DNA of 64,000 nt from Bacteroidia bacterium (GCA_965279035.1 OZ257142.1:1632001-1696000); one strand, 5' to 3'; shown: positions 11,496 through 41,050, counted from the first letter of the stretch. The notes: generated by a model not told the origin, from the sequence alone. Program-made: numbers and translations.

Positions 11496-11600
11496 CCCGC
11501 GACAGGGATTGCAGCCATTACCGCTTTTGAACCGAAGGTGAAAATTAGTAGAGGCGGAAAGCCCGGTGCTTTTGGAGTGAAGCAGAAAAAGGAGGCGCCC
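11496..11600 (+). ncRNA. Flavo-1-like structured repeat/RNA motif
   Basis: GGG-ATTGCA-GCC ... GGC-GGAAAG-CCC internal-loop stem followed by GGCGCCC; similarity to Flavo-1 is from memory, not a covariance search. Confidence 0.5.
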
Positions 11601-11641
11601 TAGGTTAGTACTAAGATTTATGTATTAAGTATTAAGAAAGG

Positions 11642-11732
<91 letters not shown>

Positions 11733-11836
11733 TGTCCTTGCCTAAAATAGGTTGACTTTTTATTATCACTTTCTACTTTGTTAAAGTAGTTTATTGTTTG
11801 TTGTTTTAAGTTTCTTTTTTGGTTCTTTTTTCTTTG

Positions 11837-13122: not shown

Positions 13123-13263
13123 GTCCCGTTTTTTAAGTTGATTTTGGTCAACCTATTTCAGTCACGGACAAGTAAAAAGTAGAAAGGAGAAAGTGTTGCT
13201 AGGTGTTATAAATCAGCAGTTCAGTAAAATCTTAATACTCTATACTCTTTACTTATTACTCTG

Positions 13264-14523: not shown

Positions 14524-14613
14524 CTATTAACATTTCACATGTTCAGCGAACGGCGAAGTTCTGTATTTTTAAATGTTTTCATTGTTTTTCATTTTTGTTT
14601 CTGATTATCAGTT

Positions 14614-14650
14614 AAACTCTCGGTCTTCCCGCCGGGAGTTTTTTATTTTC
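14614..14650 (+). terminator. Intrinsic terminator-like hairpin in a divergent intergenic region
   Basis: AAACTCTCGG-loop-CCGGGAGTTT followed by a T tract. Confidence 0.6.
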
Positions 14651-14797
14651 TGTGGATGAAGGCAATTTTCGAATCCCAATCAGAGCTTGAATCTAAGTCA
14701 AGAGCATCCATTAACATACGAATTGTTCCTGTTTTCAAGTGATTGAAAAAAAGCAGAACTCAAAATCATTCCTCATCCGAACAAGTCTTTTTTTCCG

Positions 14798-14805
14798 TAC
14801 GTTTG
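14798..14805 (+). promoter_or_regulatory. sigmaA -7 element (TACGTTTG) for sucD
   Basis: TAnnTTTG match about 24 nt upstream of ATG 14829. Confidence 0.6.
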
Positions 14806-14828
14806 CCCCCGAAATTTCGAACATACTC

Positions 14829-15701
14829 ATGAGCGTTTTAGTCAACAAAAACAGTAAAATCATAGTACAAGGATTTACCGGTAGCGAAGGAACATTTCAC
14901 GCCGGACAAATGATCGATTACGGTACACAGGTAGTTGGTGGAGTAACTCCAGGAAAAGGAGGAAGTTCTCATCTTGACCGTCCCGTTTTCAATACAGTAG
15001 CCGAAGCGGTTTCTAAAACAGGCGCTGATGTGTCTATCATTTTCGTTCCACCAGCATTTGCTGCCGATGCGATTATGGAAGCTGCCGATGCTGGAATTAA
15101 AGTGATTATCTGCATCACCGAAGGAATTCCGGTGAAAGATATGATCATGGCGAAGGAATATTTGAATGGGAAAGAGTGTCGCTTGATTGGACCAAATTGT
15201 CCGGGAGTGATTACTCCAGAAGAAGCGAAAGTGGGCATTATGCCAGGATTTGTGTTTAAGAAAGGGAAAGTGGGAATTGTTTCTAAATCGGGAACATTGA
15301 CTTACGAAGCTGCCGATCAAGTGGTGAAAGCCGGAATGGGAATTTCTACAGCGATTGGAATTGGTGGAGATCCGATTATTGGAACGACTACTTTAGAAGC
15401 TGTTCAACTATTGATGGCTGATCCAGAAACTGCCGGTATTGTTATGATTGGCGAGATTGGTGGAAATTTAGAAGCTGATGCTGCTCGTTGGATTAAAGCT
15501 AACGGAACTAAACCCGTTGTAGGATTTATTGCTGGTAAAACGGCTCCTGCTGGTCGTCGTATGGGTCACGCCGGTGCTATTGTTGGCGGTGCAGATGATA
15601 CAGCCGAAGCAAAAATGCGCATCATGCGTGAATGTGGAATTACGGTAGTTGATTCGCCTGCAGTCATTGGTATTACTATGGCTCAAGTGCTTAATAATTA
15701 A
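14829..15701 (+). CDS. sucD: Succinyl-CoA synthetase alpha subunit
   Basis: QGFTG, GGVTPGKGG, IGPNCPG, RMGHAGAI phospho-His motif; true start MSVLVNK. Confidence 0.97.
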   Translation: MSVLVNKNSKIIVQGFTGSEGTFHAGQMIDYGTQVVGGVTPGKGGSSHLDRPVFNTVAEAVSKTGADVSIIFVPPAFAADAIMEAADAGIKVIICITEGIPVKDMIMAKEYLNGKECRLIGPNCPGVITPEEAKVGIMPGFVFKKGKVGIVSKSGTLTYEAADQVVKAGMGISTAIGIGGDPIIGTTTLEAVQLLMADPETAGIVMIGEIGGNLEADAARWIKANGTKPVVGFIAGKTAPAGRRMGHAGAIVGGADDTAEAKMRIMRECGITVVDSPAVIGITMAQVLNN

Positions 15702-15724
15702 TTGATTCTAACTAACCTTCTTTT

Positions 15725-16110
15725 CGGTTGAATTAACAGTTTATTATTTCATATCAATCTATGAAATAAGGCTGTTAAAGCATCTTATCATTCAATCATT
15801 CATGATTGTCTACGACGTGTTACTTTCTTGTCTTGAAACAAGAATTAACCAACGGCGAAGCCCTCATGAGTACCTTTGAAAAATAAACACTTGCGAATAA
15901 AGAAGTTCAAGTCTGGACGATGCTGCTTGCGCGCAGTTATATTCACTAAACGACCTCACCCCCAACCCCTCTCCTCGAGGAGAGGGGAGCTTGATTGTCC
16001 TAAATGGAAAGTCCCTCTCCCGTGGAGAGGGATTTAGGGAGAGGTCAACGCTGGGAAACACACCCTCGCCGCCCAGACATAGCCTTCGAACTGATCCGTT
16101 TCTAAACCTA
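15725..16110 (+). repeat. Dispersed modular structured element, copy A
   Basis: Colinear blocks shared with the reverse complement of 60346-60631, including an identical 31-mer GAAACACACCCTCGCCGCCCAGACATAGCCT. Confidence 0.9.
15952..16050. repeat. Inverted pair of CCCTCTCC/GGAGAGGG REP-like hairpins nested in copy A
   Basis: GACCTCACCCCCAACCCCTCTCCTCGAGGAGAGGGG and an inverted partner ending GAGAGGTCAACG; same family as the 10.1-10.3 kb hairpins. Confidence 0.85.
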
Positions 16111-16326
16111 AAAATAGGTTAATATAATTTTATATAATAGTCATCTACTTACCTTGAGAATTGGACTTGTTATAAGAATCAATGAAGAATAATATTAAAT
16201 TTTAAACTGCTCAACAGGTTATAACTTTTATAATTAATGCCTGTTCTTATCCATCGTGTTTTTCTATTTCTATAAGTCACCAAGTAAACGCGTTTTTTGA
16301 CGTTACTTTGCACCTTACATACTACC

Positions 16327-17679
16327 ATGACAACATCTTTGGAAGCGCTTTCACCCATCGACGGTCGATATTTACGCTATACCACTTCATTACGCGCTTA
16401 TTTTTCTGAACTCGCTTTGTTTAAATATCGGGTTCAGGTTGAAGTAGAATACCTCATTGCTTTATCGGAAATTGGATTGAAGGGATTTGAACCGTTTTCG
16501 GATTCGGAGAAGCAGCAGCTTCGATTGATTTATCAAGGATTTGGAAAGGATCATGGTGCCGCGATTAAGGAAATTGAGAAGCGTACCAATCACGATATTA
16601 AGGCGGTTGAATATTTCATCAAGGAACAGCTGGAACAACTTGGATTAGGGGCGAAAATGGAATGGGTACATTTCGGATTAACCTCGCAGGATATCAATAA
16701 CACCGCAATTCCACTTTCGATGAAAGAAGCGGCTGAGCAAGTTATTTTCCCCGCTTTAGAAGAATTATGTGCTGAGTTGAAAAAGCTTGCAAACACTTGG
16801 AAAGACTTGCCGATGCTCGCTCGTACACACGGACAGGCGGCTTCACCCACTACTTTAGGAAAAGAGATTTACGTTTTTGCCGAGCGAATTGAGATTCAAA
16901 TTCATCAATTAAAGCAAACTGTTTGGGCGGCAAAATTTGGCGGTGCAACTGGGAATTTCAATGCGCATCATGTGGCTTTTCCTACGACCGATTGGTTGAA
17001 TTTTGCCCATGGATTTGTGAGTTCGCTTGGATTGTCGCGAAGCCGCACCACGACTCAGATTGAGCATTATGATCATCTGGCTGCATATTGCCAGAATATG
17101 ATGCGTGTGCACACCATACTCATCGATTTTTGTCGGGATATTTGGATGTATATCTCGATGGAATATTTCAGTCAGCGAGTAAATCCGGGTGAGACGGGTT
17201 CTTCGGCCATGCCACATAAAGTGAATCCGATTGATTTCGAAAATGCCGAAGGAAATTTGGGAATTGCGAATGCCTTGTTAGATCATTTTGCTCAAAAGCT
17301 TCCTATTTCTCGACTTCAGCGCGATTTAACGGATTCAACCGTGTTGCGAAATATCGGAGTTCCATTTGCGCATAGTTTAATTTCGATTCATTCGATTCAG
17401 CGTGGATTAGGGAAACTTTTATTGAATGAATCAGCCATTGCAGCCGATTTGAATCATCATACAGCGGTGATTGCCGAAGCCATCCAAACCATTTTGCGTC
17501 GCGAAGGATATCCTCAACCATACGAAGCGCTGAAAGGTTTAACACGAGGGAATAACACGATTGATTTACCACTCATTCACGAATTCATCCGAAACTTAAA
17601 TGTGAGTGATTCCGTGAAAGCGGAATTGTTTCAAATTACTCCAGCCAATTACACCGGAATTATTCGATTCGAGGCATGA
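16327..17679 (+). CDS. purB: Adenylosuccinate lyase
   Basis: ALSPIDGRY, TNHDIKAVEY, GSSAMPHKVNPIDFENAEGN. Confidence 0.96.
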   Translation: MTTSLEALSPIDGRYLRYTTSLRAYFSELALFKYRVQVEVEYLIALSEIGLKGFEPFSDSEKQQLRLIYQGFGKDHGAAIKEIEKRTNHDIKAVEYFIKEQLEQLGLGAKMEWVHFGLTSQDINNTAIPLSMKEAAEQVIFPALEELCAELKKLANTWKDLPMLARTHGQAASPTTLGKEIYVFAERIEIQIHQLKQTVWAAKFGGATGNFNAHHVAFPTTDWLNFAHGFVSSLGLSRSRTTTQIEHYDHLAAYCQNMMRVHTILIDFCRDIWMYISMEYFSQRVNPGETGSSAMPHKVNPIDFENAEGNLGIANALLDHFAQKLPISRLQRDLTDSTVLRNIGVPFAHSLISIHSIQRGLGKLLLNESAIAADLNHHTAVIAEAIQTILRREGYPQPYEALKGLTRGNNTIDLPLIHEFIRNLNVSDSVKAELFQITPANYTGIIRFEA

Positions 17680-18548
17680 AAGTAAGCGGTTTCACCTTTA
17701 TCCGGAACGCTGTAAAATTCGATTATCCGGTTGTTGAAGCGATTACTTCTGTCTTGCCGATGGTGGATGAATTTATCGTCATGGCGGGCAATTCGGAAGA
17801 TTGTACTAATGAATTAATTGCCTCTATTCCTTCCGATAAGATTAAGATTTTCCACTCGGTTTGGGATGATCGTTTACGCAGCGGTGGCCGAGTACTAGCA
17901 TTAGAAACCGATAAAGCCATGGAGCACATTTCGGTTGATAATGATTGGGCTTTTTACATTCAAGCCGATGAGGTGGTGCATGAAAAATACCATGCTCAAG
18001 CTCTTGAAAGTATGCGACATTGGAAGGATGATAAACGTGTTGAAGGCTTGCTTTTTAACTACACCCATTTTTATGGATCGTACGATTTCATTGGCGATTC
18101 GAGACGTTGGTACCGGAAAGAAGTACGCATTATTCGACCGCATATTGGTGTTCAATCTTGGAAAGATGCGCAAGGCTTTCGGATTGATGGCAAACCATTG
18201 AAGGTAAAGGAAAGCGGAGCTAGTATATATCATTACGGTTGGGTGAAGCCACCGGAACAACAACAAGCCAAGCAAGAATATTTTCATAAACTCTGGCACG
18301 ACGACCAGTGGATGAAAGAGAACATTCCCGACGTAGCTGAATTTGATTATTCGAGTATTGATTCGGTGGCTCGATTTGAGGGCACTCATCCATCGGTGAT
18401 GCAAGCCCGAGTTGACCGCCAGAACTGGAAAGTAAACATCGATCCAGCTAAGAAGAAGCTATCATTTCGTTATCAATTCTTGTTGTTTATCGAGCGACTT
18501 ACAGGATGGCGCGCGGGTGAATACAAGAACTACCGAATCCTGAAATAG
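17676..18548 (+). CDS. Glycosyltransferase family 2-like protein
   Basis: GFTFIRNA, WAFYIQADE, IYHYGWV; ATGA overlap with purB. Confidence 0.8.
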   Translation: MKVSGFTFIRNAVKFDYPVVEAITSVLPMVDEFIVMAGNSEDCTNELIASIPSDKIKIFHSVWDDRLRSGGRVLALETDKAMEHISVDNDWAFYIQADEVVHEKYHAQALESMRHWKDDKRVEGLLFNYTHFYGSYDFIGDSRRWYRKEVRIIRPHIGVQSWKDAQGFRIDGKPLKVKESGASIYHYGWVKPPEQQQAKQEYFHKLWHDDQWMKENIPDVAEFDYSSIDSVARFEGTHPSVMQARVDRQNWKVNIDPAKKKLSFRYQFLLFIERLTGWRAGEYKNYRILK

Positions 18549-18635
18549 CGATTTTTTCCAGTTATCGACTAAGTTTCAAACAGCACTGTTCATATTCATT
18601 TGCTGTTTCGACTATGTTCCGCTTGGTGCTTTTCG

Positions 18636-18643
18636 TAGGTTTG
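18636..18643 (+). promoter_or_regulatory. sigmaA -7 element (TAGGTTTG) for purL-radC-meaB
   Basis: TAnnTTTG match about 17 nt upstream of ATG 18660. Confidence 0.6.
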
Positions 18644-18659
18644 CAAACCGATCTTCGTC

Positions 18660-20909
18660 ATGCAAACAACCAACGCCAATACCGCCCTTACAACTGTTGA
18701 TACCGCTAAAAAACTTGGATTACTTCCAGAGGAGTTTGAGCGCATCTGTACCATTCTCGGACGAACACCCAATTTTACAGAGCTGAGTATTTTCTCGGTG
18801 ATGTGGAGTGAACACTGTTCTTATAAAAATTCGATCACTTGGTTAAAGACTTTACCGCGCGATGGGGAAGCCTTATTAGCCAAGGCAGGTGAGGAGAATG
18901 CCGGATTGATCGACATTGGAGATGGCTGGGCGTGTTGTTTTAAGATTGAATCACACAATCACCCATCTGCGTTGGAACCTTATCAAGGAGCAGCTACCGG
19001 AGTTGGAGGAATTAACCGTGACATTTTTACCATGGGCGCTCGTCCAGTAGCGCAATTGAACTCGCTACGATTTGGCGATCCAGCTTTGGCTAAGACTCAG
19101 TGGCTCGTTCGTGGTGTGGTGAAAGGAATCGGAAATTATGGAAATGCCTTTGGGATTCCAGTAGTTGGTGGCGAAGTTTTCTTTGACGAATGTTATAATG
19201 TGAATCCATTGGTGAATGCGATGTCGGTGGGATTGGTTCGTCATAGAGAAACCGCATCTGCCACATCCGAAGGTGTTGGAAATCCAGTTTACATTGTTGG
19301 TTCATCCACAGGAAAAGACGGGATTCATGGAGCAACATTCGCTTCAGGAGATTTAACAGAAGAATCAGCTAAGGATTTACCAGCTGTTCAGGTAGGTGAT
19401 CCATTCCAAGAGAAACTGTTGTTGGAAGCTACATTAGAAGTTATACAAACAGGCGCTATTATCGGAATGCAAGATATGGGAGCTGCAGGTATTACGTGTT
19501 CTACTTCGGAAATGTCGGCTAAAGGAGAGCATGGAATGGATATTTGGTTGGATAAAGTTCCAACGCGTCAGGATGGAATGCATGGCTGGGAGATTTTACT
19601 TTCCGAATCTCAGGAGCGTATGCTGATGGTGGTTAAAAAGGGTAGAGAAGAGGAAGTAGAAGCGGTATTTGCCAAATGGGATTTGCATTATGCAGTAATT
19701 GGAATTGTGACAGAAGGCAATCGTTTACGTTACTACATGAAAGGTGAATTAGAGGCTGATGTTCCTGCATTTGATTTAGTATTAGGAGGTGGCGCACCTG
19801 TTTACAAACGTGAATACACTGAACCTGCATATTTTGCCGAAGCACAGAAGTTTTCGATTGATCAAATTACCGAACCAAGCGATCTGAATCAAGTAGCTAA
19901 GCATTTGTTATCGAATCCAAACATTGCTAGCAAGCGTTGGGTGTATGAGCAATACGATTCGATGGTAGGAACTGCGAATATGAGCACAAATCGTCCTGCT
20001 GATGCGGCTTTGGTGAATGTAAAAGGAACGAACCGCGCATTAGCTTTAACGGTTGATTGTAATTCTCGTTATGTGAATGCAGATCCAGAAAAAGGAGCTT
20101 CCATTGCTGTTGCAGAAGCCGCACGTAATATTGTTTGTTCAGGCGGAAAGCCAATGGCCATAACCAATTGCTTGAATTTTGGAAATCCGTATGTGCCCGA
20201 AGTTTACTGGCAGTTTGTAAAAGCAATCCAAGGAATGGGTGCTGCGTGTAAAGCATTTGGAACACCCGTTACAGGCGGAAATGTGAGTTTCTACAATCAA
20301 ACTCAGGTTGGTAAAGAAACGATCCCTGTTTTCCCTACACCAACCATTGGAATGTTGGGATTGTTGGAAGATAAAACCAAAGGAATGGGACTCGCGTTTC
20401 AGAATGAAGGTGATTTGATTTACCTCATTGGTGCGAGTCGCAACGATATCAATGCTTCGGAGTACTTAGCTTCTTGGCATCATGTGCGCCAAAGTCCGGC
20501 CCCATACTTTAACATGGAGGAAGAACTTGACATGCAGCAAACGGTTTCTCAATTAATTGCTGCCGACTTGGTGATTTCTGCACACGATGTTTCTGATGGA
20601 GGTTTGTTTACCACCTTGGCAGAATCGGGATTTGTCAATAATCTAGGATTTACCATTAGTACTGACGAGGATTTCCGTAAGGATGCATTCTTATTCGGTG
20701 AGGCACAAGGACGTGTTGTATTGAGCATTGCTCCCGGAAAGCAGGAAGAATTTGTTGAGTTTATGGCCTTGAATGAAGTGCCATTTAGCTTACTAGGAAC
20801 AGTGAATCATGGTGAAGTTTGGGTTGATGAAGATTTCTGGGGAAGCTTGTCGGAATTTGCCGAAGGATATGATTCTGCATTAGGCAAGATCATGGATCAA
20901 CATGTCTGA
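18660..20909 (+). CDS. purL: Phosphoribosylformylglycinamidine synthase subunit PurL (small type)
   Basis: [42 protein letters not shown]. Confidence 0.97.
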
Positions 20910-32221: not shown

Positions 32222-32731
32222 ATGACAAAACTCCTACTTTCTCTCACTGTATTTCTACCACTAGTCGGCTTTTCTCAATCCATAGAACGAAGCGTAATTG
32301 CTGCTTCTGGATCTGTGATTTCGGAGAATACTTCGGGCATTTCTTTCAGTCAAACAATCGGCGAGCCTGTCGTATTAACGCAGCAAGTTCCTTCGGTGAT
32401 TTTCACTCAAGGCTTTCAACAACCCGATGCCGATATGATAACGTCGGTTATATCACCATCAACAGGTCAATTCGAAACGGCTGTTTGGCCAAATCCATTC
32501 GAAGACCAATTGGCTCTTTCCATCAAAAGCTCACGAAATGCCAATCTGAACGTGTCGTTTTGTGATTTAGCCGGAAGGAAAATTAGCGCTGATCAACTCA
32601 TTCAAGTTTCATCCACTTCTTCTACGTGGAATATTGCTGTAGAAAATCTGGCTGCAGGTATTTACCTCATCCAAATCCGGAACACTCAAGGCGAATTAAT
32701 CGCTACTCACCGGGTAAGTAAATCTCATTAA
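32222..32731 (+). CDS. Small T9SS type A CTD protein (QGFQQP-type)
   Basis: Signal peptide; short domain SVIAASGS...SQTIGEP...TQGFQQP; CTD VWPNPF...LAAGIYLIQI...RVSK. Confidence 0.85.
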   Translation: MTKLLLSLTVFLPLVGFSQSIERSVIAASGSVISENTSGISFSQTIGEPVVLTQQVPSVIFTQGFQQPDADMITSVISPSTGQFETAVWPNPFEDQLALSIKSSRNANLNVSFCDLAGRKISADQLIQVSSTSSTWNIAVENLAAGIYLIQIRNTQGELIATHRVSKSH

Positions 32732-32758
32732 TCTTTTCTAAACCAACCCTAAAAGAAG

Positions 32759-35700
32759 ATGAAAAAATTCTCCTTTAACGCATTTGTATTTGGCATGCTC
32801 ATGTTTGCCGCATCTGCAAACAAAGCCATCGCACAAGATGTTCCGCGTGGTATAAACTATCAAGCAGTTGCTCGTAATGCATCTGGACAATTGCTCAGCA
32901 ATCAAAATTTGAGCGTTCGAATTTCTCTTTTGAGTCCCAATGCTTCTAATCCTTTAGTTTATCAGGAAATTCAAGCGAATGTTCAAACCAATCAATTTGG
33001 ATTGTTTAATCTAGTAATCGGGCATGGTGCTCAATCTGGTGGAGACGCAGAAAACTTTGCTGCAGTTGATTGGTCTTTACCCGATATGATGATTAAAATC
33101 GAAGCTGATCTCGGCTCTGGTTATGTGGATATGGGAACAAGCGCTCTTTGGTCTGTACCATACGCTTTGTATTCGGCCAATGGAACTCCTGGTCCCCAAG
33201 GTGAACAAGGGATTCAAGGTGAACAAGGTACTCCTGGTACTGATGGAGCAACCGGTCCGCAAGGTCCTCAAGGTCCAATCGGTTTAACAGGTCCACAAGG
33301 TCCCGCTGGCGCTGATGGAGCTACCGGTCCGCAAGGTCCTCAAGGAATTGCTGGTGCCGATGGCGCTCAAGGTCCTATCGGTTTAACTGGTCCACAAGGT
33401 GAACAAGGTCCCGCTGGCGCTGATGGATTAACTGGTCCGCAAGGTCCTCAAGGAATTGCAGGTGCTGATGGTGCTCAAGGTCCAATCGGATTAACTGGTC
33501 CACAAGGTCTTCAAGGTCCCGCTGGCGCTTATGGAGCAACCGGTCCGCAAGGTCCTCAAGGAATTGCAGGTGCTGATGGTGCTCAAGGTCCAATTGGTTT
33601 AACAGGTCCACAAGGAGATCAAGGTCCTGCTGGTCTCGCTGGCGCTGATGGAGCAACTGGTCCGCAAGGTCCTCAAGGAATTGCTGGTGTCGATGGTGCT
33701 CAAGGCCCAATCGGTTTAACTGGTCCTCAAGGGGAACAAGGTCCTGCTGGCTCTGACGGTGCTACTGGTCCGCAAGGTCCTCAAGGAATTGCTGGTGCAG
33801 ATGGTGCTCAAGGTCTAATCGGTTTAACTGGTCCACAAGGTGAAGTTGGTCCGCAAGGACCTGCTGGCGCTGATGGTGCAACTGGACCTCAAGGACCTCA
33901 AGGAATCCAAGGTATTCAAGGATTAACTGGTGCAACAGGTTTAACTGGTCATGCTGGTGCCGATGGTGCTACTGGTCCTCAAGGACCTCAGGGAATTGCA
34001 GGTCCACAGGGTGACGTTGGTCCTCAAGGTGAAGTTGGCCCACAAGGTCCACAAGGTATTTCGGGTGGTTTAGCATGGACAAGCGATCGTCCATATGTAG
34101 CTGGTGAAGTAGTCGTTTACCAAGGCGAAACGTATATCTGTCAATTGAATAATGATGGAGAACCCGGTGGAATTTTTCCTACGAATGAAACTTATTTTGC
34201 ACCGTACTCTCTCGTTGGCCCTCAAGGTCCACAAGGTGAAATGGGTCCACAAGGTCCGACTGGTTCTTCTAGCGCCAATGTGCTTACAGGTGTTGTCGCT
34301 GTTGTGAATGGTGGTACAGGAATGGATCATTTAGGTGAAGCATATCAACAAATCCGCGTGAACAGTACAGGTTCAGAACTAGAATATTTCACACCAACAC
34401 TTACTGGTGTTCAAAGTATCAATGGTTCAACAGAAGGAAATCAAACAATTGTTTCTGGTAATGCCGGAAACGATTTAAATATTAGTACCGATGCAGGTGT
34501 TCATACGATCAATATTCCCGATGCTGGAATTGATAGTCGTGGTTTAATTACAAATGGCTCTCAAACAATTGCTGGAAATAAAACCATCGTCAATCCATTG
34601 CAAATCAATAACAATGTATTCATTGCTACTACCGATGGAAGTCCTGGATACCACTTTGCAACTGATGGTGAGAACTTAGCAATTAGTCATACGGGTGTTA
34701 TGGATAATCAATTATATCTTCAGTCAAACGGAGATGTACAAGTTCGAAATAATCTAGTGGTTTCAGGTGCTGGACAAACAGGTGGCGGAATTATCCTTGC
34801 CGATGATGGAGATATGGTTGACATGAATAACGGTTATGCAACCATGCGATTTTCTGCTGGTGTTCAAGTAACGAATGGAAATCGTAGTGGTGATCCAGTA
34901 ATTACGCTTAGTTCAAACGGGAATGTTTCGGGTAATGCATTCATCAAAACTAATGGTACTGGAAATCAATTCTTAAAAGCTGATGGTAGTGTTGATGCAA
35001 CCGCTTATGCAACTGCTAACGATCTTACAAATCTCGGTTCTAATTTCCTACCATTAAGTGGTGGGACTTTAACCGGTAACTTAACAGGAACCGACGCTTC
35101 CTTAAACGGAATTAGCCTAAGTCGCGTTGGAAATACACCTTTTTTGAATTTCCCAAATGGAACAACTTTGAGTACCGTTGGTGATGAAAATAATAAGGAT
35201 ATCTTATTCCGAAACCTTGGTCAATTGCGCTTCTCCGATGCCAATGAATGGGATTGGAATGCTTGGGCTGGATTAAGTTATAAACGTGCTACCAATCAGG
35301 TTGTTTTTGGATTCCCCGATGGAGTGAATTTATCTGGTAATAATTCAGGAACCATGTTGTTTTCGAATGTTAACGAAGCATACATGGGCAATACAAACAA
35401 TATTGTTCTTCATACGGGAAATGTGCCAAACATGGCATTAACAACGGGAGCTTTAACATCGCCTTCAATTAATTTCTCTCAATCTGGGGCTACACCATTT
35501 ATCAATACAACAAATGGTGTTTCTTTAAGTACTGTGGGTGATCAAACAAACAAAGACTTAATCATCCGAAATCTCGGTCAATTGCGTTTTTCCGATAACA
35601 ACAATTGGGATTGGAATGCTTGGGCTGGTTTAGCTTACAAAAGTGCCAACAATCAAGTGGTTTTAGGATTTCCCGATAATGATAATTTTTCAGGAAATGC

Positions 35701-36781
35701 AACTGGAACCTTATTATTCAGCAATGTAAATGATGTATATGTGAGAAATTCTAACAACGTTGTCCTTCACACAGGCAATATCATGAATCGGAATTTAACA
35801 CTCGGTTCAGTTCTCGAAACAGATTTAACGCTTTCACAAACTGGTGCAACTCCATTTCTAAATCTACCAAGCGAAGTGTCAATGAGTACAACCGATGCTG
35901 GTGATTTAGTTCTCCGTAACCTCGATCAACTCCGCTTCACCGATGCCAACGATTGGGATTATAGCTCTTGGGCAGGATTGTCCTATAAACGAGCTAATAA
36001 TCAAGTTGTTTTAGGTTTTCCTGATGGCAATAATTTCCTAGGCGCTAATTCAGGTACTCTTTTGTTCAGCAACGTGAATGAAGCTTATATGGGAAATACC
36101 AATAATGTAGTTATTCACTCCGGTAATTATCAATCTAAAATCTCCAGTTTATCCAATCTGTCGCTTACACAAACTGGTGCAACACCATTCTTGAGTTTAC
36201 CAAGTGAAGTGTCAATGAGTACAACAGATGCCGGCGACTTAGTATTCCGTAACCTCGATCAACTTCGCTTTACCGATGCCAACGATTGGGATTATAGCTC
36301 TTGGGCAGGATTGGCATACAAACGTGCAACAAACCAAATTGTACTCGGATTCCCCGATGGCAATAACTTCCTTGGAAGCACAACAGGAACACTCTTCTTT
36401 TCGAATGTGAATAACGCCTACATTGGAAATACCAATCAAGAAATAATTCACACCGGAAATTTATCTCAGTTTGCATTACCTAAACCTGCTGATGCTGGAA
36501 CTCAAGGACAAATTCTATCGCTTTCAAACAATGGAACTACTGCTTGGGTAAATACGCGAACTGAAGTAGCCGATGAAGTTCTTGCTGGATCTGGTCAAGT
36601 CGATTTTACTTTATCCCAAGCTCCTTCTTCTGCTAGCAAAGTGAAAATGTATGTCAATGGAATTCGAATTAGCAATGCTGCTTATTCTATTTCTGGAACT
36701 ACTCTTACTTACGATGCTAATAACAACGGAGCTTATGTGTTATCAGCTGGTGATCGTATCCAATTCGATTATTCATATTAA
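32759..36781 (+). CDS. Exported collagen-like/phage-fibre-like protein without T9SS CTD
   Basis: Signal peptide; GINYQAVARN...SVPYALY N-domain; long Gly-X-Y tract; CBM5/12-like module; four ~100-aa repeats ending HTGN/HSGN; C-domain ending LSAGDRIQFDYSY. Confidence 0.88.
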   Translation: MKKFSFNAFVFGMLMFAASANKAIAQDVPRGINYQAVARNASGQLLSNQNLSVRISLLSPNASNPLVYQEIQANVQTNQFGLFNLVIGHGAQSGGDAENFAAVDWSLPDMMIKIEADLGSGYVDMGTSALWSVPYALYSANGTPGPQGEQGIQGEQGTPGTDGATGPQGPQGPIGLTGPQGPAGADGATGPQGPQGIAGADGAQGPIGLTGPQGEQGPAGADGLTGPQGPQGIAGADGAQGPIGLTGPQGLQGPAGAYGATGPQGPQGIAGADGAQGPIGLTGPQGDQGPAGLAGADGATGPQGPQGIAGVDGAQGPIGLTGPQGEQGPAGSDGATGPQGPQGIAGADGAQGLIGLTGPQGEVGPQGPAGADGATGPQGPQGIQGIQGLTGATGLTGHAGADGATGPQGPQGIAGPQGDVGPQGEVGPQGPQGISGGLAWTSDRPYVAGEVVVYQGETYICQLNNDGEPGGIFPTNETYFAPYSLVGPQGPQGEMGPQGPTGSSSANVLTGVVAVVNGGTGMDHLGEAYQQIRVNSTGSELEYFTPTLTGVQSINGSTEGNQTIVSGNAGNDLNISTDAGVHTINIPDAGIDSRGLITNGSQTIAGNKTIVNPLQINNNVFIATTDGSPGYHFATDGENLAISHTGVMDNQLYLQSNGDVQVRNNLVVSGAGQTGGGIILADDGDMVDMNNGYATMRFSAGVQVTNGNRSGDPVITLSSNGNVSGNAFIKTNGTGNQFLKADGSVDATAYATANDLTNLGSNFLPLSGGTLTGNLTGTDASLNGISLSRVGNTPFLNFPNGTTLSTVGDENNKDILFRNLGQLRFSDANEWDWNAWAGLSYKRATNQVVFGFPDGVNLSGNNSGTMLFSNVNEAYMGNTNNIVLHTGNVPNMALTTGALTSPSINFSQSGATPFINTTNGVSLSTVGDQTNKDLIIRNLGQLRFSDNNNWDWNAWAGLAYKSANNQVVLGFPDNDNFSGNATGTLLFSNVNDVYVRNSNNVVLHTGNIMNRNLTLGSVLETDLTLSQTGATPFLNLPSEVSMSTTDAGDLVLRNLDQLRFTDANDWDYSSWAGLSYKRANNQVVLGFPDGNNFLGANSGTLLFSNVNEAYMGNTNNVVIHSGNYQSKISSLSNLSLTQTGATPFLSLPSEVSMSTTDAGDLVFRNLDQLRFTDANDWDYSSWAGLAYKRATNQIVLGFPDGNNFLGSTTGTLFFSNVNNAYIGNTNQEIIHTGNLSQFALPKPADAGTQGQILSLSNNGTTAWVNTRTEVADEVLAGSGQVDFTLSQAPSSASKVKMYVNGIRISNAAYSISGTTLTYDANNNGAYVLSAGDRIQFDYSY
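33182..34068 (+). repeat. Collagen Gly-X-Y coding repeat with 108/117-bp higher-order units
   Basis: GADG-type units begin at 33308, 33416, 33524, 33641, 33749 and 33866. Confidence 0.9.
35116..36460 (+). repeat. Four tandem intragenic ~100-aa repeats
   Basis: TPFL...RNLxQLRFxDxNxWDxxxWAGLxYK...GFPD...FSNVN...HxGN four times. Confidence 0.92.
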
Positions 36782-36799
36782 TTAATTCCTTCGCGAATT

Positions 36800-38302
36800 A
36801 TGAGATATTTCCTTCACCTGTTGATTTGCATCCTGTTTACGCTAGATGCATCAGCGCAAGGAATAAATAAGCACGGACAAATAAATGTTTCGTCCGGAAT
36901 GGTAAATCAATACGGAGCAATTGGACAAAGTGGTTTAACAACTAATGGACGATTATTCACACCTGCTAATAATGGTAATTTAAACGCACTCGATTTCGAT
37001 GGAGGAGCTAATTATGTTGAGGTTCAGCCGGGTGTTTATTTTAACAGCGATTTTACGATCGAATGTTGGGTATATCCCCGCAGTTTTGGTAATTGGTCAC
37101 GTGTTATTGATTTTGGAAATGGAGCAGGAGCCAACAATGTTTTACTCGCTTACACTTGGGGAACAACGGGTAATCCAGCAGTTCACATCGACGGACAACA
37201 ATTCTATGCCGACAATGTGTTAGAGCTCAATACTTGGTCGCATTTGGCTGTTACGTTATCGGGTAATACATGTACTTTTTACATTAATGGAATTCCATCC
37301 GGCAGTAGCAATATGCCAACACCTAGCGATGTAATGCGTAACCAATGTTACATAGGAAAAAGCAACTGGAATGGCGATCCCAATGCGGATGCGCGTTTCG
37401 ATGAACTTCGAATTTTTAATTATGGAAAATCCGAAGCCGAAATTCTTGCAGGAATGCATCTCGAAGCATTTGGAAATGAAGCCGGTTTAGTAGCCTATTA
37501 CAATTTCAATCAAGGAAATGCAAATTCAAATAATGCAGGTATTTCTACGCTGACCGATAATTCTGGAAATGGTCATGCCGGTACTTTAAATGGGTTTGTA
37601 CTCGATGGTAATACCAGTAATTTTGTCCAAGGAGCTCCTTTAGGTGACGGTCTTTCTCCTGAAACGGCTGGTAGTAGCGCATTCTCTATCAAACAGAGTT
37701 TTCCGGCTTCAACGGATGGTTTGTATTGGATTCGAAATTTGAATATCAATGGTGGAACTCCTGTTCAGATTTATGCCGATATGACTACCGACGGTGGCGG
37801 TTGGACCTTAATTACATGTAATGCAGATAACGGTGGTTGGGATTATGCTAATGCAATCGAATTAAATACTGCAACACCAAGTATTAATTCCAATTATTCC
37901 ATCATTACATGGGCCGATTATTTGAAGAAAAGTGCTAGCGGTTTTCAATACATGATTGAATCAAATCAACGCCGTAGTTATGGTGGTATTTGGACTGCAA
38001 ATGGCGCTTATAGCTTTGTCAATAATACCAATTCACAAACCGATGTGACCATAAATACCAAATTCGGTATCGATGGAAGTCTAGGAACTTGGACCTATAG
38101 CGATGGCGGTATTGAGCAGCGAATGCCTTGGTATTCCGACTGTAGCGGCTACATAACAACTAGTTCCGATTGCGGCGGCGGCAGTTGGTGGGGAACATTA
38201 ATTTCAACAGGAGGTTGGAGTCCCGCACCTTGGATTGCCGGTGGCTGTGGCGACGAAGGTTGCATGCCGCATCCTGGTATACTTTGGTATTGGGTACGAT
38301 AA
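36800..38302 (+). CDS. Exported LamG (concanavalin-like) + fibrinogen-like domain protein, no CTD
   Basis: Signal peptide; ALDFDG...FTIECWV...WSHLAVT...DELRIFN...LVAYYNFN; DGLYWI...IYADMTTDGGGWTLI; ends LWYWVR. Confidence 0.85.
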   Translation: MRYFLHLLICILFTLDASAQGINKHGQINVSSGMVNQYGAIGQSGLTTNGRLFTPANNGNLNALDFDGGANYVEVQPGVYFNSDFTIECWVYPRSFGNWSRVIDFGNGAGANNVLLAYTWGTTGNPAVHIDGQQFYADNVLELNTWSHLAVTLSGNTCTFYINGIPSGSSNMPTPSDVMRNQCYIGKSNWNGDPNADARFDELRIFNYGKSEAEILAGMHLEAFGNEAGLVAYYNFNQGNANSNNAGISTLTDNSGNGHAGTLNGFVLDGNTSNFVQGAPLGDGLSPETAGSSAFSIKQSFPASTDGLYWIRNLNINGGTPVQIYADMTTDGGGWTLITCNADNGGWDYANAIELNTATPSINSNYSIITWADYLKKSASGFQYMIESNQRRSYGGIWTANGAYSFVNNTNSQTDVTINTKFGIDGSLGTWTYSDGGIEQRMPWYSDCSGYITTSSDCGGGSWWGTLISTGGWSPAPWIAGGCGDEGCMPHPGILWYWVR

Positions 38303-38317
38303 AAAATAAATCATTAT

Positions 38318-38348
38318 AAAAAGGTCAGAATTCGTTCTGGCCTTTTTT
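38318..38348 (+). terminator. Intrinsic terminator closing the 32222-38302 operon
   Basis: AAAAAGGTCAGAA-TTCG-TTCTGGCCTTTTTT. Confidence 0.85.
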
Positions 38349-38845: not shown

Positions 38846-41050
38846 ATGTTACGTTTAAAACCAATTTATTTTTTCATTCAATTTATTCTACTGATTTTAT
38901 TTTCAATTCCCAGTAATGCTCAAATCAACATCGTTTCCTATGCAGGAAATTCAAGTCGAGAAACATTTTACGATGTTGCCCAATTGAGCGATGGAACATT
39001 TATTATAGGAGGATATTGTGAAAATTTAGATTGGATTTCGGCTTCCGTTCCGCGCACGCAACTGAGCTGGACTGGCTCTATTCCCAATGCTCAAGGAACA
39101 AATCGCTATGGATTCTTAATTCAACTTTCTCCCGATTTCCAAACCATGTTGAATGTTGTGCATTTCCCACAAGGTGCAGTTGAAGACATTCGATTTATCA
39201 AAACCAATGCGCTTCCCTATGCAACAACGGGCGATCTTTATATAAGCTGCAATACGTCCGACAGCGATAATAACAACGGTGGATACATCATTGCTAAACT
39301 CAACAATAATTTCGTCAACGGAATTCCTACTGCATTGAGTTGGATCAATGTTGTTTGGGCGAAATCAGGGCCGAAAGAGTATCATCCTTGGGATGTGACG
39401 AACGATGGAAAGGTGTTTTACATTTCTGGTGAAGCTTATGGTTACGATTGGAGCGCGGTGTATTGTCTCGATCAAACTGGACGTCGAACAGTTGTAAATA
39501 ATTGGCGAACGCATTGGCTCAAAGATGGAACAGAATGGCACGGCTTTCCAGCATCAGCAAACCCAACAGGAGATCTCGATTGGGTTAACTTTAGTGGTAT
39601 AGTTTTGAAAAGTTGGGGCCGTTGCGATTTACGATCGTGGACATTGAACGATTACAACAGCATTTTACCCGATGGAAATGGCGGAACTAAAAAAGGAAAA
39701 TGGCCGGTTGATGTATTGTTTAACGGTCCATGCGATCCTCAAAATCCAAGCACAAATGGACCCGGTTATTCGGGTTATTCGCAAGAATCCTGTTGTCCGG
39801 TTTATGGTGGAAGCAACATTGTAATTGATAAACGGAATAACAATCTGTATATCGGGATGAATATGAAGAGCTATTACAATCCCAGCAACACACCCGATTT
39901 TGAACCAGCTATCATCGCTATGGACAGTGAAGGAACGCTTCGTTGGTGGAGTCGTTTATACCATGAAATAACTCCTGCTGGCGATACGGTTGCTTCCATT
40001 CCGGATCAATATATCGATGCCTTGGCGATTGATTACAATCATAATCAATTAGTAGTAAATGCTCGCACACATGGAAATAACACGGAGAATTTTTGGGAAG
40101 GAAATACACTCGCTGCCAATCCACAAGCTCTTGGTTTTCAAAATCAATTTACCGGAACCTCGGGCAATATTCATGTTTCATGGTTAGGGAAATTGCAACT
40201 CTTAGATGGAACAATTTTACATTCCACCTATGTGGCTGAACTCAGCGATGCAACGGGTTCTCTTGGCACACTACATTCCGATCCAAACTTGGATGGATGG
40301 CCCGATCCCAATACAGGATGGCCTAATGTGAATACAACGCGTTTAGCTAAAAATAATCTCAAAGTAAGTAGCAACGGCGATGTATGTATTTTGGGTCTTG
40401 GTCGAAGAACCATTACAACAGCCAATGCATACCAAAAAATGGTAAAACCTCAGTTTGGTGGACATAGTGCATGGAATAGTTTTGTTCGTGTGTATGATTC
40501 CAATTTAAGTGTCCCAAAATATTCTTCTTTAGTTGTTGGTGTTTGGGATACGGTAAGTCAAGTAGGAGGTAGCAATACCGAAATCTTCGGACTATATAAA
40601 ACAGCAAATGGTATTGTTGCAGTAGGTCGACAAACCGCCGATACGAGTAATGTTGCTCAAGGAAACAATCTTCCAATTTCTCAAGTTCCATCCTGGGGAA
40701 ATACCACAGCACAGGGTGAAAGCGCTATATTGGTTTATTACACTGCAAGTAATTTATACAATCCGAATGATTCAATTCAAGGCGGAATAATTACGAATAT
40801 AGCACCTGCCAAGTCAAACGATATTACACTATTTCCCAATCCAGCAAGCGATCGAGTTTGGTTGAATTTCAAAGGTTCACTTTCAAATCAAAACTGGACA
40901 TATCAATTAATCGATATGAGTGGGCGTTGCATTCAAAAAGGAAATCTACTTGGGAACTACATTCCATTAAATTCAATTAGCAGCGGTATTTATCAGATTC
41001 AATTGAATAATGAAAAATCAACTTATTCTAATAAACTGATCGTATTATAA
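38846..41050 (+). CDS. T9SS type A CTD protein, catalytic or binding domain unrecognised
   Basis: Signal peptide; beta/Trp/Gly-rich body; CTD LFPNPA...ISSGIYQIQL...KLIVL. Confidence 0.8.
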   Translation: MLRLKPIYFFIQFILLILFSIPSNAQINIVSYAGNSSRETFYDVAQLSDGTFIIGGYCENLDWISASVPRTQLSWTGSIPNAQGTNRYGFLIQLSPDFQTMLNVVHFPQGAVEDIRFIKTNALPYATTGDLYISCNTSDSDNNNGGYIIAKLNNNFVNGIPTALSWINVVWAKSGPKEYHPWDVTNDGKVFYISGEAYGYDWSAVYCLDQTGRRTVVNNWRTHWLKDGTEWHGFPASANPTGDLDWVNFSGIVLKSWGRCDLRSWTLNDYNSILPDGNGGTKKGKWPVDVLFNGPCDPQNPSTNGPGYSGYSQESCCPVYGGSNIVIDKRNNNLYIGMNMKSYYNPSNTPDFEPAIIAMDSEGTLRWWSRLYHEITPAGDTVASIPDQYIDALAIDYNHNQLVVNARTHGNNTENFWEGNTLAANPQALGFQNQFTGTSGNIHVSWLGKLQLLDGTILHSTYVAELSDATGSLGTLHSDPNLDGWPDPNTGWPNVNTTRLAKNNLKVSSNGDVCILGLGRRTITTANAYQKMVKPQFGGHSAWNSFVRVYDSNLSVPKYSSLVVGVWDTVSQVGGSNTEIFGLYKTANGIVAVGRQTADTSNVAQGNNLPISQVPSWGNTTAQGESAILVYYTASNLYNPNDSIQGGIITNIAPAKSNDITLFPNPASDRVWLNFKGSLSNQNWTYQLIDMSGRCIQKGNLLGNYIPLNSISSGIYQIQLNNEKSTYSNKLIVL

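Follow-up and report, generated by a model that had tools for sequence, protein, structure and literature searches.

A small T9SS-tagged protein encoded beside a MAT-like surface fibre: a possible dock for the fibre base in Bacteroidota

Introduction

How is a surface fibre fixed to the cell when it carries no T9SS sorting domain of its own? The question is raised by a three-gene locus in a Bacteroidia bacterium (GCA_965279035.1, OZ257142.1:1632001-1696000), which lies within the 64,000-nucleotide stretch of DNA analysed here (the window). An earlier note on this DNA had proposed that a small protein with a T9SS C-terminal sorting domain (CTD) exports or anchors a trimer containing collagen, and that a third, lectin-like protein caps the tip. 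Our analyses indicate that the locus most likely encodes a T9SS-tagged adaptor beside a MAT-like surface fibre, together with a two-lectin protein, in one operon.

Organisation of the locus

The open reading frames encode proteins of 169, 1340 and 500 residues, in this order and all on the plus strand, with intergenic gaps of 27 and 18 bp and a shared terminator, as originally described (Table 1). The terminator-like hairpin is the sole strong one on the plus strand, and it was recognised only by matching a consensus (8 sites, compared with 6.4 +/- 2.8 in shuffled sequences). Candidate signal peptides were read by eye from the translations of all three proteins; they have a basic n-region, a hydrophobic core and an end of the form ...SQ or ...AQ. 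The predicted Sec signal peptide of the small protein is MTKLLLSLTVFLPLVGFSQ. The claim that only the smallest protein has a CTD held up: no CTD match was found in the fibre (where the last 130 residues were also searched) or in the third protein. A second CTD protein is encoded elsewhere in the window, at 38846-41050.

Table 1. Positions of the genes and domains of the locus, counted from the first nucleotide of the window
Feature	Position	Strand	Residues	Evidence
Small T9SS cargo gene: signal peptide, 48-aa passenger, linker, type-A CTD	32222-32731	+	169 aa	ORF, Pfam/NCBIfam matches, 29-member alignment A2
Passenger domain, Q.LS..V...G....S.TVGE..V.....LTQGFQQP	32276-32428	+	19-69	HMM match
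Type-A T9SS C-terminal sorting domain	32483-32698	+	88-159 (Pfam); strands 84-167 in model	Pfam, TIGR04183, AF2
MAT-like fibre gene, putatively trimeric, no CTD	32759-36781	+	1340 aa	ORF, family scans
Conserved N-terminal beta-sandwich (predicted), homologous to Bdellovibrio MAT N-domain	32834-33178	+	26-140	NF053851, AF2
Collagen triple-helix region, 99 uninterrupted G-X-Y triplets	33182-34072	+	142-438	Pfam Collagen, 155.6 bits (cut-off 27.2)
48-aa interruption, then 6 G-X-Y triplets	34073-34270	+	487-504 (triplets)	Weak CBM_5_12-like match, 18.8 bits, below cut-off
Non-collagen shaft with four ~115-aa repeats	34271-36478	+		Motif LRF[ST]D.N.WD at aa 823, 942, 1058, 1169
C-terminal tip domain, ...KVKMYVNGIRISN...GDRIQFDYSY	36479-36778	+	1241-1340	End of fibre ORF
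Two-lectin protein, predicted to be secreted, no CTD	36800-38302	+	500 aa; LamG 67-215, fibrinogen/intelectin-like GGGWT ~290-500	Pfam, NCBIfam, PDB
Terminator-like hairpin, end of three-gene unit	38318-38347	+		13-pair stem, then T run

The fibre and its family

All the parts previously ascribed to the 1340-residue protein could be located: the N-terminal GINYQAVARN domain, the collagen, the repeats and the compact C-terminal domain, which is 100 residues long. The 99 G-X-Y triplets suggest that the protein trimerises. Its close relatives have one or two shaft repeats and 61-88 triplets, and the shaft gives a weak match to a GLAA-B beta-barrel (31.5 bits). The named collagen adhesins Lcl, Scl1 and Scl2 were considered and rejected as identities: their matches score 182, 164 and 125 bits where the cut-offs are 500, 325 and 400, and are limited to the collagen part, and LPXTG, the Scl anchor, is absent.

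The N-domain identifies the family. Residues 22-101 match NF053851 (Bdello_MAT_N) with 38 bits for the whole protein and 44 bits for the domain alone, and all 13 N-domains of alignment A1 match the same model (best E 8.3e-17). By these matches the homology to Bdello_MAT_N appears clear, at scores below the curated-subfamily cut-off of 60. AlphaFold2 (AF2) predicts the N-domain to be a beta-sandwich of seven strands (mean pLDDT 88.9), for which no PDB fold matched at E<=1e-3. Caulton et al. (2024, PMC10769870) likewise report no PDB homologue of the MAT N-domain, and describe the MAT fibres of Bdellovibrio bacteriovorus, such as Bd2133 and Bd3182, as mosaic adhesive trimers. On sequence grounds, the 1340-residue protein is a Bacteroidota relative of these fibres.

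Relatives join the same N-domain base to collagen, YadA-head or S74 shafts. The tips of 75 fibres built on this base include C1q (16), Peptidase_S74 (13), Lcl_C (2) and Gp53-like (Gp53-like_C, 2), the others being unnamed. A constant base bearing mosaic, exchangeable tips, of which some have an S74 chaperone-protease, is a MAT trait; further traits of the family are a beta-rich N-domain of about 130 residues immediately behind the signal peptide, and a place on the cell surface with a part in binding to other cells. The likeness to the Bdellovibrio fibres also includes the signal peptide followed by a conserved beta-rich N-domain (44 bits here, against the cut-off of 60), the apparently trimeric shaft, C-terminal tips that can be swapped with or without an S74 chaperone, and the N-domain without structural homologue in the PDB. 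The differences are that the host here belongs to the Bacteroidota and is not known as a predator, that the shaft consists of collagen plus repeats of its own, and that a gene for a T9SS-tagged partner adjoins and is conserved, whereas the fibres of Bdellovibrio have no known surface partner. The earlier note knew of no characterised system with this layout; the fibre itself turns out to be of a described kind, but we found no published description of its pairing with the small protein.

The tip domain has no sequence match in Pfam or the PDB. It is present in 4 of 401 sampled genomes and is kept at 52-70% identity on the ends of otherwise different fibres and shafts. Its protein-language-model look-alikes are phage clusters, which we treat as a lead only.

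We also considered whether the cluster is what remains of a tail-fibre module from a prophage or tailocin, given that PHROG tail-fibre families match the fibre and that the tip resembles phage clusters in a protein atlas. However, the PHROG matches all lie within residues 119-512, that is, in the collagen, the interruption and the second triplet run, and so reflect composition. All three proteins have signal peptides (by eye), and the neighbouring genes inspected are not obviously phage, as judged by eye from translations. Among 2.9 million viral contigs the N-domain turned up in 2 loci, compared with at least 604 stretches in genome contigs. We therefore rejected a phage module, an origin that we regard as extremely improbable.

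The small T9SS-tagged protein

The CTD of the small protein matches Pfam Por_Secre_tail over residues 88-159 with 47.4 bits (cut-off 27) and TIGR04183 with 34.7 bits (cut-off 23). Without signal peptide and CTD, about 65 residues remain, including TQGFQQP, close to the figure of about 60 given before for a protein with almost no other cargo. The passenger matches no Pfam family. The small proteins that contain it form a large family without a name, and the G, F and second Q of the motif QGFQQ are invariant across the 33 rows of alignment A3. AF2 gives pLDDT values of 43-57 for the passenger and of 87-94 for the CTD (10-residue blocks, from residue 81 on), so that, modelled alone, the passenger is predicted to have no confident fold of its own. 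Por_Secre_tail is present in 28 of the 29 family members in A2. It is also found in the small gene of locus L053, while those of L015, L034 and L171 have CHU_C at 76-86 bits. Wherever this could be tested, the passenger is fused to a type-A or type-B T9SS CTD.

Linkage of passenger and fibre genes

We collected 78 loci by means of the N-domain and searched them for the passenger with a profile. All 46 passenger matches were on the strand of the fibre and beside MAT-like fibre genes: 40 immediately upstream, at 295-429 nt from the N-domain, two about 1.9 kb upstream, and four just downstream of fibres. The stop of the small gene and the start of the fibre gene are mostly 1-36 nt apart. Across five whole genomes, a fibre gene adjoins 11 of the 13 strong passenger matches. 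In 400 genomes sampled evenly from the phylum, the passenger was present in 21, and every one of these (21/21) has the N-domain, against a base rate of 98/400; 30 of the 35 passenger matches in this sample lie beside a listed fibre gene. The genome lists for passenger, N-domain and SprA were compared by hand. SprA is found in 98/98 N-domain genomes and in 311/400 overall, a comparison confounded by phylogeny. A further 12 single-fibre genomes were missed by the QGFQQ profile, and in all 12 a small CTD gene touches the fibre gene (11 with a divergent passenger and Por_Secre_tail, one with a passenger and CHU_C). Neither Por_Secre_tail nor CHU_C was found in any of 75 fibre C-termini scanned.

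The small gene does not accompany every fibre. A small CTD gene is directly upstream of only 39 of the 88 fibre genes that have at least 700 nt of upstream sequence. The five genomes contain 18, 12, 24, 1 and 5 N-domain match rows (about 16, 11, 24, 1 and 5 distinct fibre genes), compared with 5, 3, 3, 1 and 2 passenger matches. Since fibres outnumber small genes, either the small protein acts in trans or many fibres manage without it. A mirror-tree test gave no passenger-specific signal (partial r with the N-domain 0.55 for the CTD and 0.43 for the passenger). The proposal of a small CTD protein acting for the CTD-less fibre by way of the fibre's N-domain nevertheless appears to be strongly supported by gene context.

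The third gene

The third protein matches Laminin_G_3 at residues 67-215 (98.5 bits) and GGGWT_bact (NF040941, the fibrinogen-like YCDxxxxGGGW domain) at residues 293-338 (60.1 bits, cut-off 30), whereas Pfam Fibrinogen_C reaches 19.6 bits and falls under its cut-off of 22. Its description as LamG plus fibrinogen-like is thus borne out by the first two families and not by the third. Sequence matches in the PDB are 4qvs (1.1e-9, LamG part) and intelectin-1 (1.3e-5, residues 292-343). The part conserved across homologues is the C-terminal intelectin-like half, and the N-terminal halves vary (LamG, Ig_7 or Big_2).

Each of the 12 full-length homologues for which there is upstream sequence (55-97% identity) is immediately preceded by the tip domain, and the tip also lies upstream in 8 of 9 loci that share only the intelectin-like half (>=60% identity). 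In four genomes sampled by means of the tip domain, however, a LamG/GGGWT gene is downstream in none, and unrelated genes are found there instead. The gene neighbourhood expected by the earlier note is seen for passenger and N-domain, and only half so for the third gene. The same result divides the claim that the third protein caps the tip: its close homologues follow this tip in every case, but the tip also occurs without them. No form fused to a fibre was seen among the 120 longer homologues listed. From its domains and gene order, the third protein may be a glycan-binding accessory linked to this tip type; that it actually sits on the fibre tip is a tentative suggestion that we consider somewhat doubtful.

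An alternative is that the third protein is an assembly factor for this tip type, comparable to phage tail-fibre assembly proteins, or a lectin for glycans on the cell's own surface, rather than a permanent tip adhesin. The conserved synteny with the tip and the intelectin-like sequence match agree with this, and the constant intelectin-like half with its variable N-terminal partners would fit a common docking or glycan-binding module. However, the known small cytoplasmic fibre chaperones are unlike a protein with a signal peptide and two lectin-type domains, and the tip does without the gene in the four genomes above; we consider such a role very unlikely.

It is also conceivable that the three proteins are independent secreted adhesins or lectins, co-transcribed and co-regulated without physical assembly. 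Each has its own signal peptide (by eye), the third gene is missing beside most fibres as well as beside the same tip in all four sampled genomes, and GGGWT-ending proteins are common among Bacteroidota in numerous other architectures (213 longer matches, E<=1e-10). Against this, the gaps are very short, the third gene family goes with the tip domain (12/12), and the adjacency of small gene and fibre is kept across orders despite swaps of shaft and tip. Independence of all three is in our judgement quite unlikely.

Proposed docking of the fibre base

Our preferred reading, to which we assign a probability of roughly 0.55, is that the locus encodes a surface fibre of the MAT kind and a Bacteroidota-specific docking partner, with the small protein as a T9SS-delivered dock for the fibre base. 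Judging from the signal peptides read by eye, Sec would export all three proteins to the periplasm. The fibre would trimerise, with the N-domain as the cell-proximal base and the C-terminal domain as the distal tip. The rise of a collagen triple helix is about 0.29 nm per residue, and the 99 triplets would give a helix of about 85 nm. T9SS fixes its cargo by the C-terminus, and the C-terminus of the fibre is its working tip, so the sorting domain could not be on the fibre; the small protein would provide it in trans. The passenger would bind the N-domain: its position beside N-domain genes, whatever the shaft and tip, points to the part common to all those fibres. A type-A CTD would carry the small protein through T9SS, and the fibre might pass the outer membrane attached to it. 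PorU-type processing can link the new C-terminus of T9SS cargo to surface lipopolysaccharide. Where relatives have a type-B CTD, the small protein would instead remain on a PorP/SprF-type carrier. In this way the passenger would form a surface-tethered socket that grips the fibre base.

The two proteins could also cooperate in another manner, the fibre taking a T9SS-independent route like that in Bdellovibrio and the small cargo being an assembly primer, spacer, regulator or co-adhesin peptide, displayed or released separately, that has only to be produced along with the fibre. Bdellovibrio carries surface MAT fibres in a phylum that is not known to have T9SS, so the export of such fibres needs no CTD partner in principle. 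Caulton et al. (2024, PMC10769870) state that the surface partner of the MAT N-domain is unknown. In our loci, about half of the fibre genes have no adjoining small gene, and the excess of fibres per genome and the mirror-tree result point the same way. On the other side, the small protein stripped of its CTD is a peptide of about 65 residues that does not confidently fold alone, for which a role other than binding something is hard to see. Its gene is placed almost exclusively by N-domain genes, whatever their shaft and tip, and the CTD is always on the small protein and never on the fibres. We regard cooperation of this other kind as unlikely.

Comparison with other systems

Gingipains exemplify the usual type-A cargo of T9SS, which the PorU/PorV attachment machinery processes. 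The small protein resembles such cargo in its predicted signal peptide and in a Por_Secre_tail above both curated cut-offs, but its cargo is a 48-residue peptide with no enzyme or adhesin domain, and it apparently serves another, CTD-less protein.

BclA of the Bacillus exosporium is a collagen-like fibre whose N-terminal domain is attached to basal-layer proteins, and BclA_C and C1q Pfam matches occur among the fibre relatives. The two systems would share a collagen-like trimer, a globular distal tip (C1q/TNF-like in BclA, or other) and N-terminal attachment to a separate anchoring protein, the trimer and the attachment being proposals in the present case. They differ in that the host here is Gram-negative and presumably uses T9SS, the N-domain is unrelated, and the proposed anchor is a secreted peptide tethered via its CTD.

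Phage long tail fibres can have a separate tip adhesin or assembly protein, as in T4 gp37/gp38 and lambda Stf/Tfa. As in these, a tip-specific partner gene directly follows the fibre gene here, and goes with the type of tip rather than the base. Unlike these, the locus is cellular, signal peptides are predicted, the partner is a 500-residue two-lectin protein, and its linkage to this tip is not universal.

In hitchhiker or piggyback export, known from Tat hitchhiking and peroxisomal piggyback import (described in PMC9251779), one subunit bears the targeting signal for a folded complex, as we suggest purely by analogy for the small protein. In the portion of the literature covered, no description of such export was found for T9SS. 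In many Bacteroidota the small gene adjoins that of the fibre base, a pairing that points to the way in which these fibres are held at the cell surface.

Organization of the three-gene unit

The three open reading frames were found, all on the forward strand, at the positions that an earlier note on this DNA had assigned to them, and its intergenic gaps of 27 and 18 bp were confirmed. The note had also restricted the T9SS C-terminal sorting domain (CTD) to the smallest protein, and this too held: the small protein scores 47.4 bits against Por_Secre_tail and 34.7 bits against TIGR04183 (type-A CTD), while Pfam and NCBIfam find no CTD in the two larger proteins. Signal peptides of all three proteins were judged by eye.

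Features of the three-gene unit and its surroundings (window coordinates)
Feature	Position	Strand	Basis
Small gene, 169 aa	32222-32731	+	ORF
Fibre gene, 1340 aa	32759-36781	+	ORF
Shaft region of the fibre	33182-36478		
48-aa insert in the collagen helix (aa 439-486)	34073-34216		
Third gene, 500 aa	36800-38302	+	ORF
Terminator-like hairpin, 13-pair stem then T run	38318-38347	+	Consensus match
Spacer 3' of the operon, ~540 bp	38350-38845		
Gene for a 734-aa protein	38846-41050		

The hairpin behind the third gene is to be read as a consensus match only, because terminator-like sites in this region are not above shuffled sequence. In the spacer that follows, a direct repeat some 60 bp long starts near 38460 and again near 38668, and a GC-rich hairpin (ccccggatt..aatccgggg) occurs three times; the spacer thus resembles a small intergenic element of REP/MITE type. 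Behind the terminator comes the gene for a separate T9SS cargo, which carries a Por_Secre_tail domain of its own (44.9 bits) and matches no further Pfam family.

The fibre and its MAT-like base

The large protein matches Pfam Collagen with 155.6 bits. Behind its N-terminal domain (N-domain) run 99 uninterrupted G-X-Y triplets and, after an interruption of 48 aa, another six; then come a non-collagen shaft that includes four repeats of about 115 aa each, and an end domain of 100 aa. The interruption has a weak CBM_5_12-like match (18.8 bits, below cut-off). It is evidently kept in close relatives, because the six-triplet run that follows it recurs there. PHROG fibre matches were uninformative, as every one listed lies between aa 119 and 512, which is in essence the collagen region. 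In the close relatives (locus L079 and proteins P0002-P0004) base and tip are constant and the shaft is variable, with 88, 80, 73 or 61 triplets and one or two repeats, and the length of the fibre seems, on this comparison, to vary between strains.

The N-domain (GINYQAVARN ... SVPYALYS) forms the start of many Bacteroidota proteins with differing downstream parts, among them collagen, YadA-head repeats and the S74 chaperone. Matches numbered 54 among 361 candidates, and species-representative genomes contain at least 604 N-domain stretches. In an even sample of the phylum, searched with at most 10 candidates scored per genome, the domain was found in 98 of 400 genomes (99 of 401 with genome G001), making a MAT-like fibre base widespread in Bacteroidota. 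The viral contig collection yielded it in two loci only (L178 and L179), and from this distribution we regard the base as cellular, not viral. The tips are mosaic: the last 130 residues of 75 complete relatives match C1q in 16 cases, Peptidase_S74 in 13, Lcl_C in two and Gp53-like_C in two, many others being unnamed, and a T9SS CTD of either type (A, or B, which is CHU_C) was found there in none of the 75.

A compact class of fibres, 312-584 aa long and with C1q-like tips, was noted on contigs mostly labelled Bacteroidales or Rikenellaceae (L017, L020, L026, L037, L040, L046, L049, L055, L059, L060, L062, L064, L070, L072-L074); the small gene lies directly upstream in every member.

Against the NCBIfam model NF053851 (Bdello_MAT_N), which describes the base of the mosaic adhesive trimer (MAT) fibres of Bdellovibrio, the N-terminus of the window fibre scores 38 bits, under the cut-off of 60; of the aligned N-domains, 13 of 13 match the Bdellovibrio MAT model (best E 8.3e-17). 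The domain is modelled as a seven-strand β-sandwich with good confidence (pLDDT 88.9). An alternative view of it as an outer-membrane barrel was dropped, the predicted structure being a compact soluble sandwich. A Foldseek search of the PDB gave nothing at E<=1e-3, and a sequence search of the PDB gave no significant match.

Caulton et al. (2024; PMC10769870) describe MAT fibres as the prey-recognition fibres of Bdellovibrio, with a trimeric shaft, variable tips, and an N-domain that has no structural homologue in the PDB. The window fibre resembles them in having a homologous N-domain without a PDB fold match, though one that scores below the curated cut-off, and, together with its relatives, in the variable tips on a constant base. 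It is probably a new member of the MAT kind.

The small protein and its passenger

In order, the small protein comprises signal peptide, passenger (48 aa), short linker and CTD. The passenger has the consensus Q.LS..V...G....S.TVGE..V.....LTQGFQQP, in which G, F and the second Q of QGFQQ are invariant, and is covered by no Pfam, NCBIfam or PHROG family; the protein atlas returned only unnamed Bacteroidota clusters for it, all below 0.9. Por_Secre_tail was found in 28 of 29 members of the small-protein family. A passenger profile run against 1.84 billion representatives matched 6763 clusters at E<=1e-3, including 1076 at E<=1e-10; the best 150 of the 6763 are mostly 158-175 aa long and carry the passenger at about residues 20-68. 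The AlphaFold2 model, averaged by 10-residue block, has a pLDDT of 87-94 in the CTD region and 43-57 in the passenger, for which it thus gives no confident fold in isolation. Formally, and judged by its domains, the small protein is an ordinary type-A T9SS cargo.

Linkage of the passenger gene to the fibre base

The association of the small CTD gene with the fibre, as proposed in the note, was borne out by a neighbourhood survey. All 46 passenger matches in the 78 N-domain loci are on the strand of the fibre gene. Forty lie directly upstream, ending 295-429 nt before the N-domain, with mostly 1-36 nt from the stop of the small gene to the start of the fibre gene; two lie about 1.9 kb upstream (Chitinophaga), and four just downstream of fibres. 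Tandem arrays of fibre genes (L014, L030) have a single small gene in front. Culturable, non-pathogenic carriers of the cassette include Chitinophaga qingshengii JCM 30026 (L075) and Polaribacter glomeratus ATCC 43844 (L007). Among the downstream cases, L015 and L034 encode the passenger with a SprB repeat and a type-B CTD (CHU_C, 84 and 77 bits), and L053 encodes it with about 300 aa and a type-A CTD. At L007 (Polaribacter glomeratus, 11336-19477) a protein of about 2700 aa begins with the passenger and goes on with LamG, SUEL-lectin and Ig-like domains; its end is masked, and it directly follows a 386-aa fibre with an Lcl_C tip. This arrangement suggests that the passenger may also hang large proteins onto the fibre base.

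Whole genomes gave the same picture. In five of them, 11 of 13 strong passenger matches adjoin a fibre gene. In the even sample of the phylum the passenger (E<=1e-6) occurs in 21 genomes, and all 21 are among the 98 that have the N-domain. By hand comparison, 30 of 35 passenger matches lie beside a fibre gene among the N-domain matches listed; the five not seen adjacent among these are G172:2250127, G196:C8, G054, G254 and G334. We also inspected twelve single-fibre genomes that were negative by the QGFQQ profile. In eleven, the fibre is directly preceded by a gene of 153-182 aa for a divergent passenger (Q..I.P.SGF...N.SL.FS.GE..VG.F) and a Por_Secre_tail of 42-51 bits, and the twelfth has a passenger with CHU_C directly downstream, so that the pairing extends beyond the QGFQQ subfamily. 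These divergent passengers were found through the adjacent CTD, as an iterated passenger HMM failed to reach them.

Two individual loci should be mentioned. In the complete genome G001, the small-gene/fibre pair at C1:1721288-1722200 has one in-frame TAG in each gene, perhaps as a decaying copy, perhaps for another reason. On the minus strand of L162 (G152:C14, 10118-12930) a 176-aa passenger (IQGFQQS) plus CTD protein, a 207-aa OMP_b-brl protein, a 550-aa fibre with the same tip as in the window, and a 1046-aa β-helix protein are encoded; the OMP_b-brl gene sits between the small gene and the fibre. Such systems may thus include, as an optional extra, a small outer-membrane barrel.

The pairing has limits. 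Of 88 fibre genes whose upstream sequence is long enough, only 39 are directly preceded by a small CTD gene, and fibres outnumber small genes within genomes: the five genomes have 18, 12, 24, 1 and 5 N-domain match rows (about 16, 11, 24, 1 and 5 distinct fibre genes) and 5, 3, 3, 1 and 2 passenger matches. Around unpaired fibres in six long loci we found no other recurrent neighbour. The SprA translocon is present in 98 of 98 N-domain genomes, against 311 of 400 overall (hand comparison), a distribution that agrees with T9SS dependence without proving it, since the SprA-negative genomes may belong to a few clades.

The main rival to a reading in which the passenger docks the fibre base is that small protein and fibre are functionally linked, yet not as dock and base. 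We consider this rival improbable. A 1:1 complex prediction of N-domain residues 26-141 with the passenger, run without controls, gave a score of 0.03 (mark 0.32), which weighs in neither direction on binding. In a mirror-tree analysis with partial Mantel tests (33 non-redundant pairs of 40), the passenger correlates with the N-domain at r 0.68 (partial r 0.43 given the CTD), and the correlation of the CTD with the N-domain is no weaker (partial r 0.55); the analysis therefore shows shared cassette history only.

The tip and the third protein

The third protein scores 98.5 bits against Laminin_G_3 and 60.1 bits against a bacterial fibrinogen-like GGGWT domain. Its C-terminal half has a PDB sequence match to intelectin-1 (E 1.3e-5) and its LamG half to an S-layer-domain protein (1.1e-9). 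LamG and intelectin folds bind glycans. In the 78 N-domain loci a LamG match was seen at L007 only, and the third gene is no general companion of these fibres.

It is associated instead with one type of tip. The last 100 aa of the fibre are found again, at 52-70% identity, as the end of fibres that differ in their other parts, with the conserved stretch REVADEF..T..QTSFTL.Q.P...SKVKMY.NGIRISN.AY...G.TLTY...NG.Y.L...DR.QFDY.Y. A sequence search of the PDB with the tip gave nothing significant; the protein atlas returned phage clusters for it at 0.88-0.93, which is a lead only. From the third protein, 79 metagenome loci were fetched. All 12 full-length homologues (55-97% identity) for which the preceding sequence is available have the tip immediately in front of them, and it also lies upstream in eight of nine loci that match only the intelectin-like half (>=60% identity); the downstream proteins in the latter are 468-1182 aa long and differ in their N-terminal parts (LamG, Ig_7, Big_2). 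The tip is missing upstream of three homologues at about 50% identity (L106, L109, L116). At L095 the N-domain end is visible on the tip-bearing fibre, and L079, from the same species, has the complete three-gene unit. Within this one subfamily the neighbourhood of the window tip with GGGWT proteins is conserved.

The survey thus supported the note's pairing of tip and third gene in one direction only. The tip domain occurs in four of 401 sampled genomes, and in all four the genes downstream are unrelated to the third protein: their products are a β-helix protein, proteins with Big_13/Big_3_3, and others that match no family, and have no similarity to one another except for two paralogues in L163.

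Many Bacteroidota proteins of about 1000 aa (P0209-P0328) end in GGGWT behind varied enzyme or Ig-like parts. Of the 120 listed GGGWT-ending proteins only two have a CTD, and by precomputed Pfam none of the 120 longer homologues of the third protein listed is a fused fibre and lectin with collagen, S74 or the N-domain. We favour the view that the third protein is a putative glycan-binding accessory specific to this tip type. That it physically caps the tip, as the note had supposed, is rather doubtful. As a possible second layer of the hitchhiker reading given below, its intelectin-like C-terminal domain could be a plug-in by which this tip type is fitted with different heads.

A proposed role for the small protein

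Collagen repeats form trimers. The T9SS moves folded CTD-bearing proteins; cargo with a type-A CTD loses this domain by cleavage and can be attached to lipopolysaccharide, and type-B CTD cargo remains on PorP/SprF-type carriers. We infer that these fibres work through the tip at their C-terminus, where a self-cleaving chaperone is often present, and that they are thereby barred from using a T9SS signal of their own at that end.

We propose that the small protein would supply the T9SS signal in trans, and that its passenger would bind the fibre base domain and be kept at the surface by a tether on its own C-terminal side, so that the fibre is held tip outwards. Gene context makes this somewhat better than an even bet (about 0.55). 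A tentative extension, which we rate as unlikely though less so than the rival without docking, is that the T9SS exports and displays a fibre without its own sorting domain as a hitchhiker on the small protein. In the periplasm the fibre trimer would fold and have its N-domains gripped by the passenger, and the partner's CTD would pull the entire complex through the SprA translocon, to end tethered to the surface by the partner's C-terminus.

The earlier note knew of no characterised system with this layout. The fibre itself has a precedent in the MAT fibres of Bdellovibrio (PMC10769870), but no paper was found on a small CTD-bearing partner of CTD-less fibres. The literature searched, with subscription-only papers outside its scope, contained no description of a minimal CTD peptide partnering such fibres; the motif QGFQQ was absent from it, and nothing relevant was found on piggyback or hitchhiker export by the T9SS, or linking the T9SS to collagen, fibre, C1q or tail fiber. 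A T9SS effector review, in its accessible part, mentions no CTD-less cargo under the terms checked. What is unusual is the combination, a minimal CTD-bearing peptide recurrently beside CTD-less fibres; what appears new in the window is the collagen shaft with strain-level length variation and the linkage of a tip type to GGGWT proteins.

Caulton et al. (PMC10769870) regard the surface element that binds the conserved MAT N-domain as still to be identified, and the part of a 2026 review available to us names no anchor for MAT fibres. The small T9SS cargo is a concrete candidate docking partner for the fibre base. The hitchhiker reading, if true, would explain what holds MAT-type fibres on a cell, and if the fibre does travel with the small protein, the T9SS would for the first time be seen to use a signal in trans. 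Annotation would gain as well, with a role for the "hypothetical T9SS sorting domain proteins" of about 165 aa, which number in the thousands, and for many proteins annotated as "collagen-like" or "tail fiber domain".
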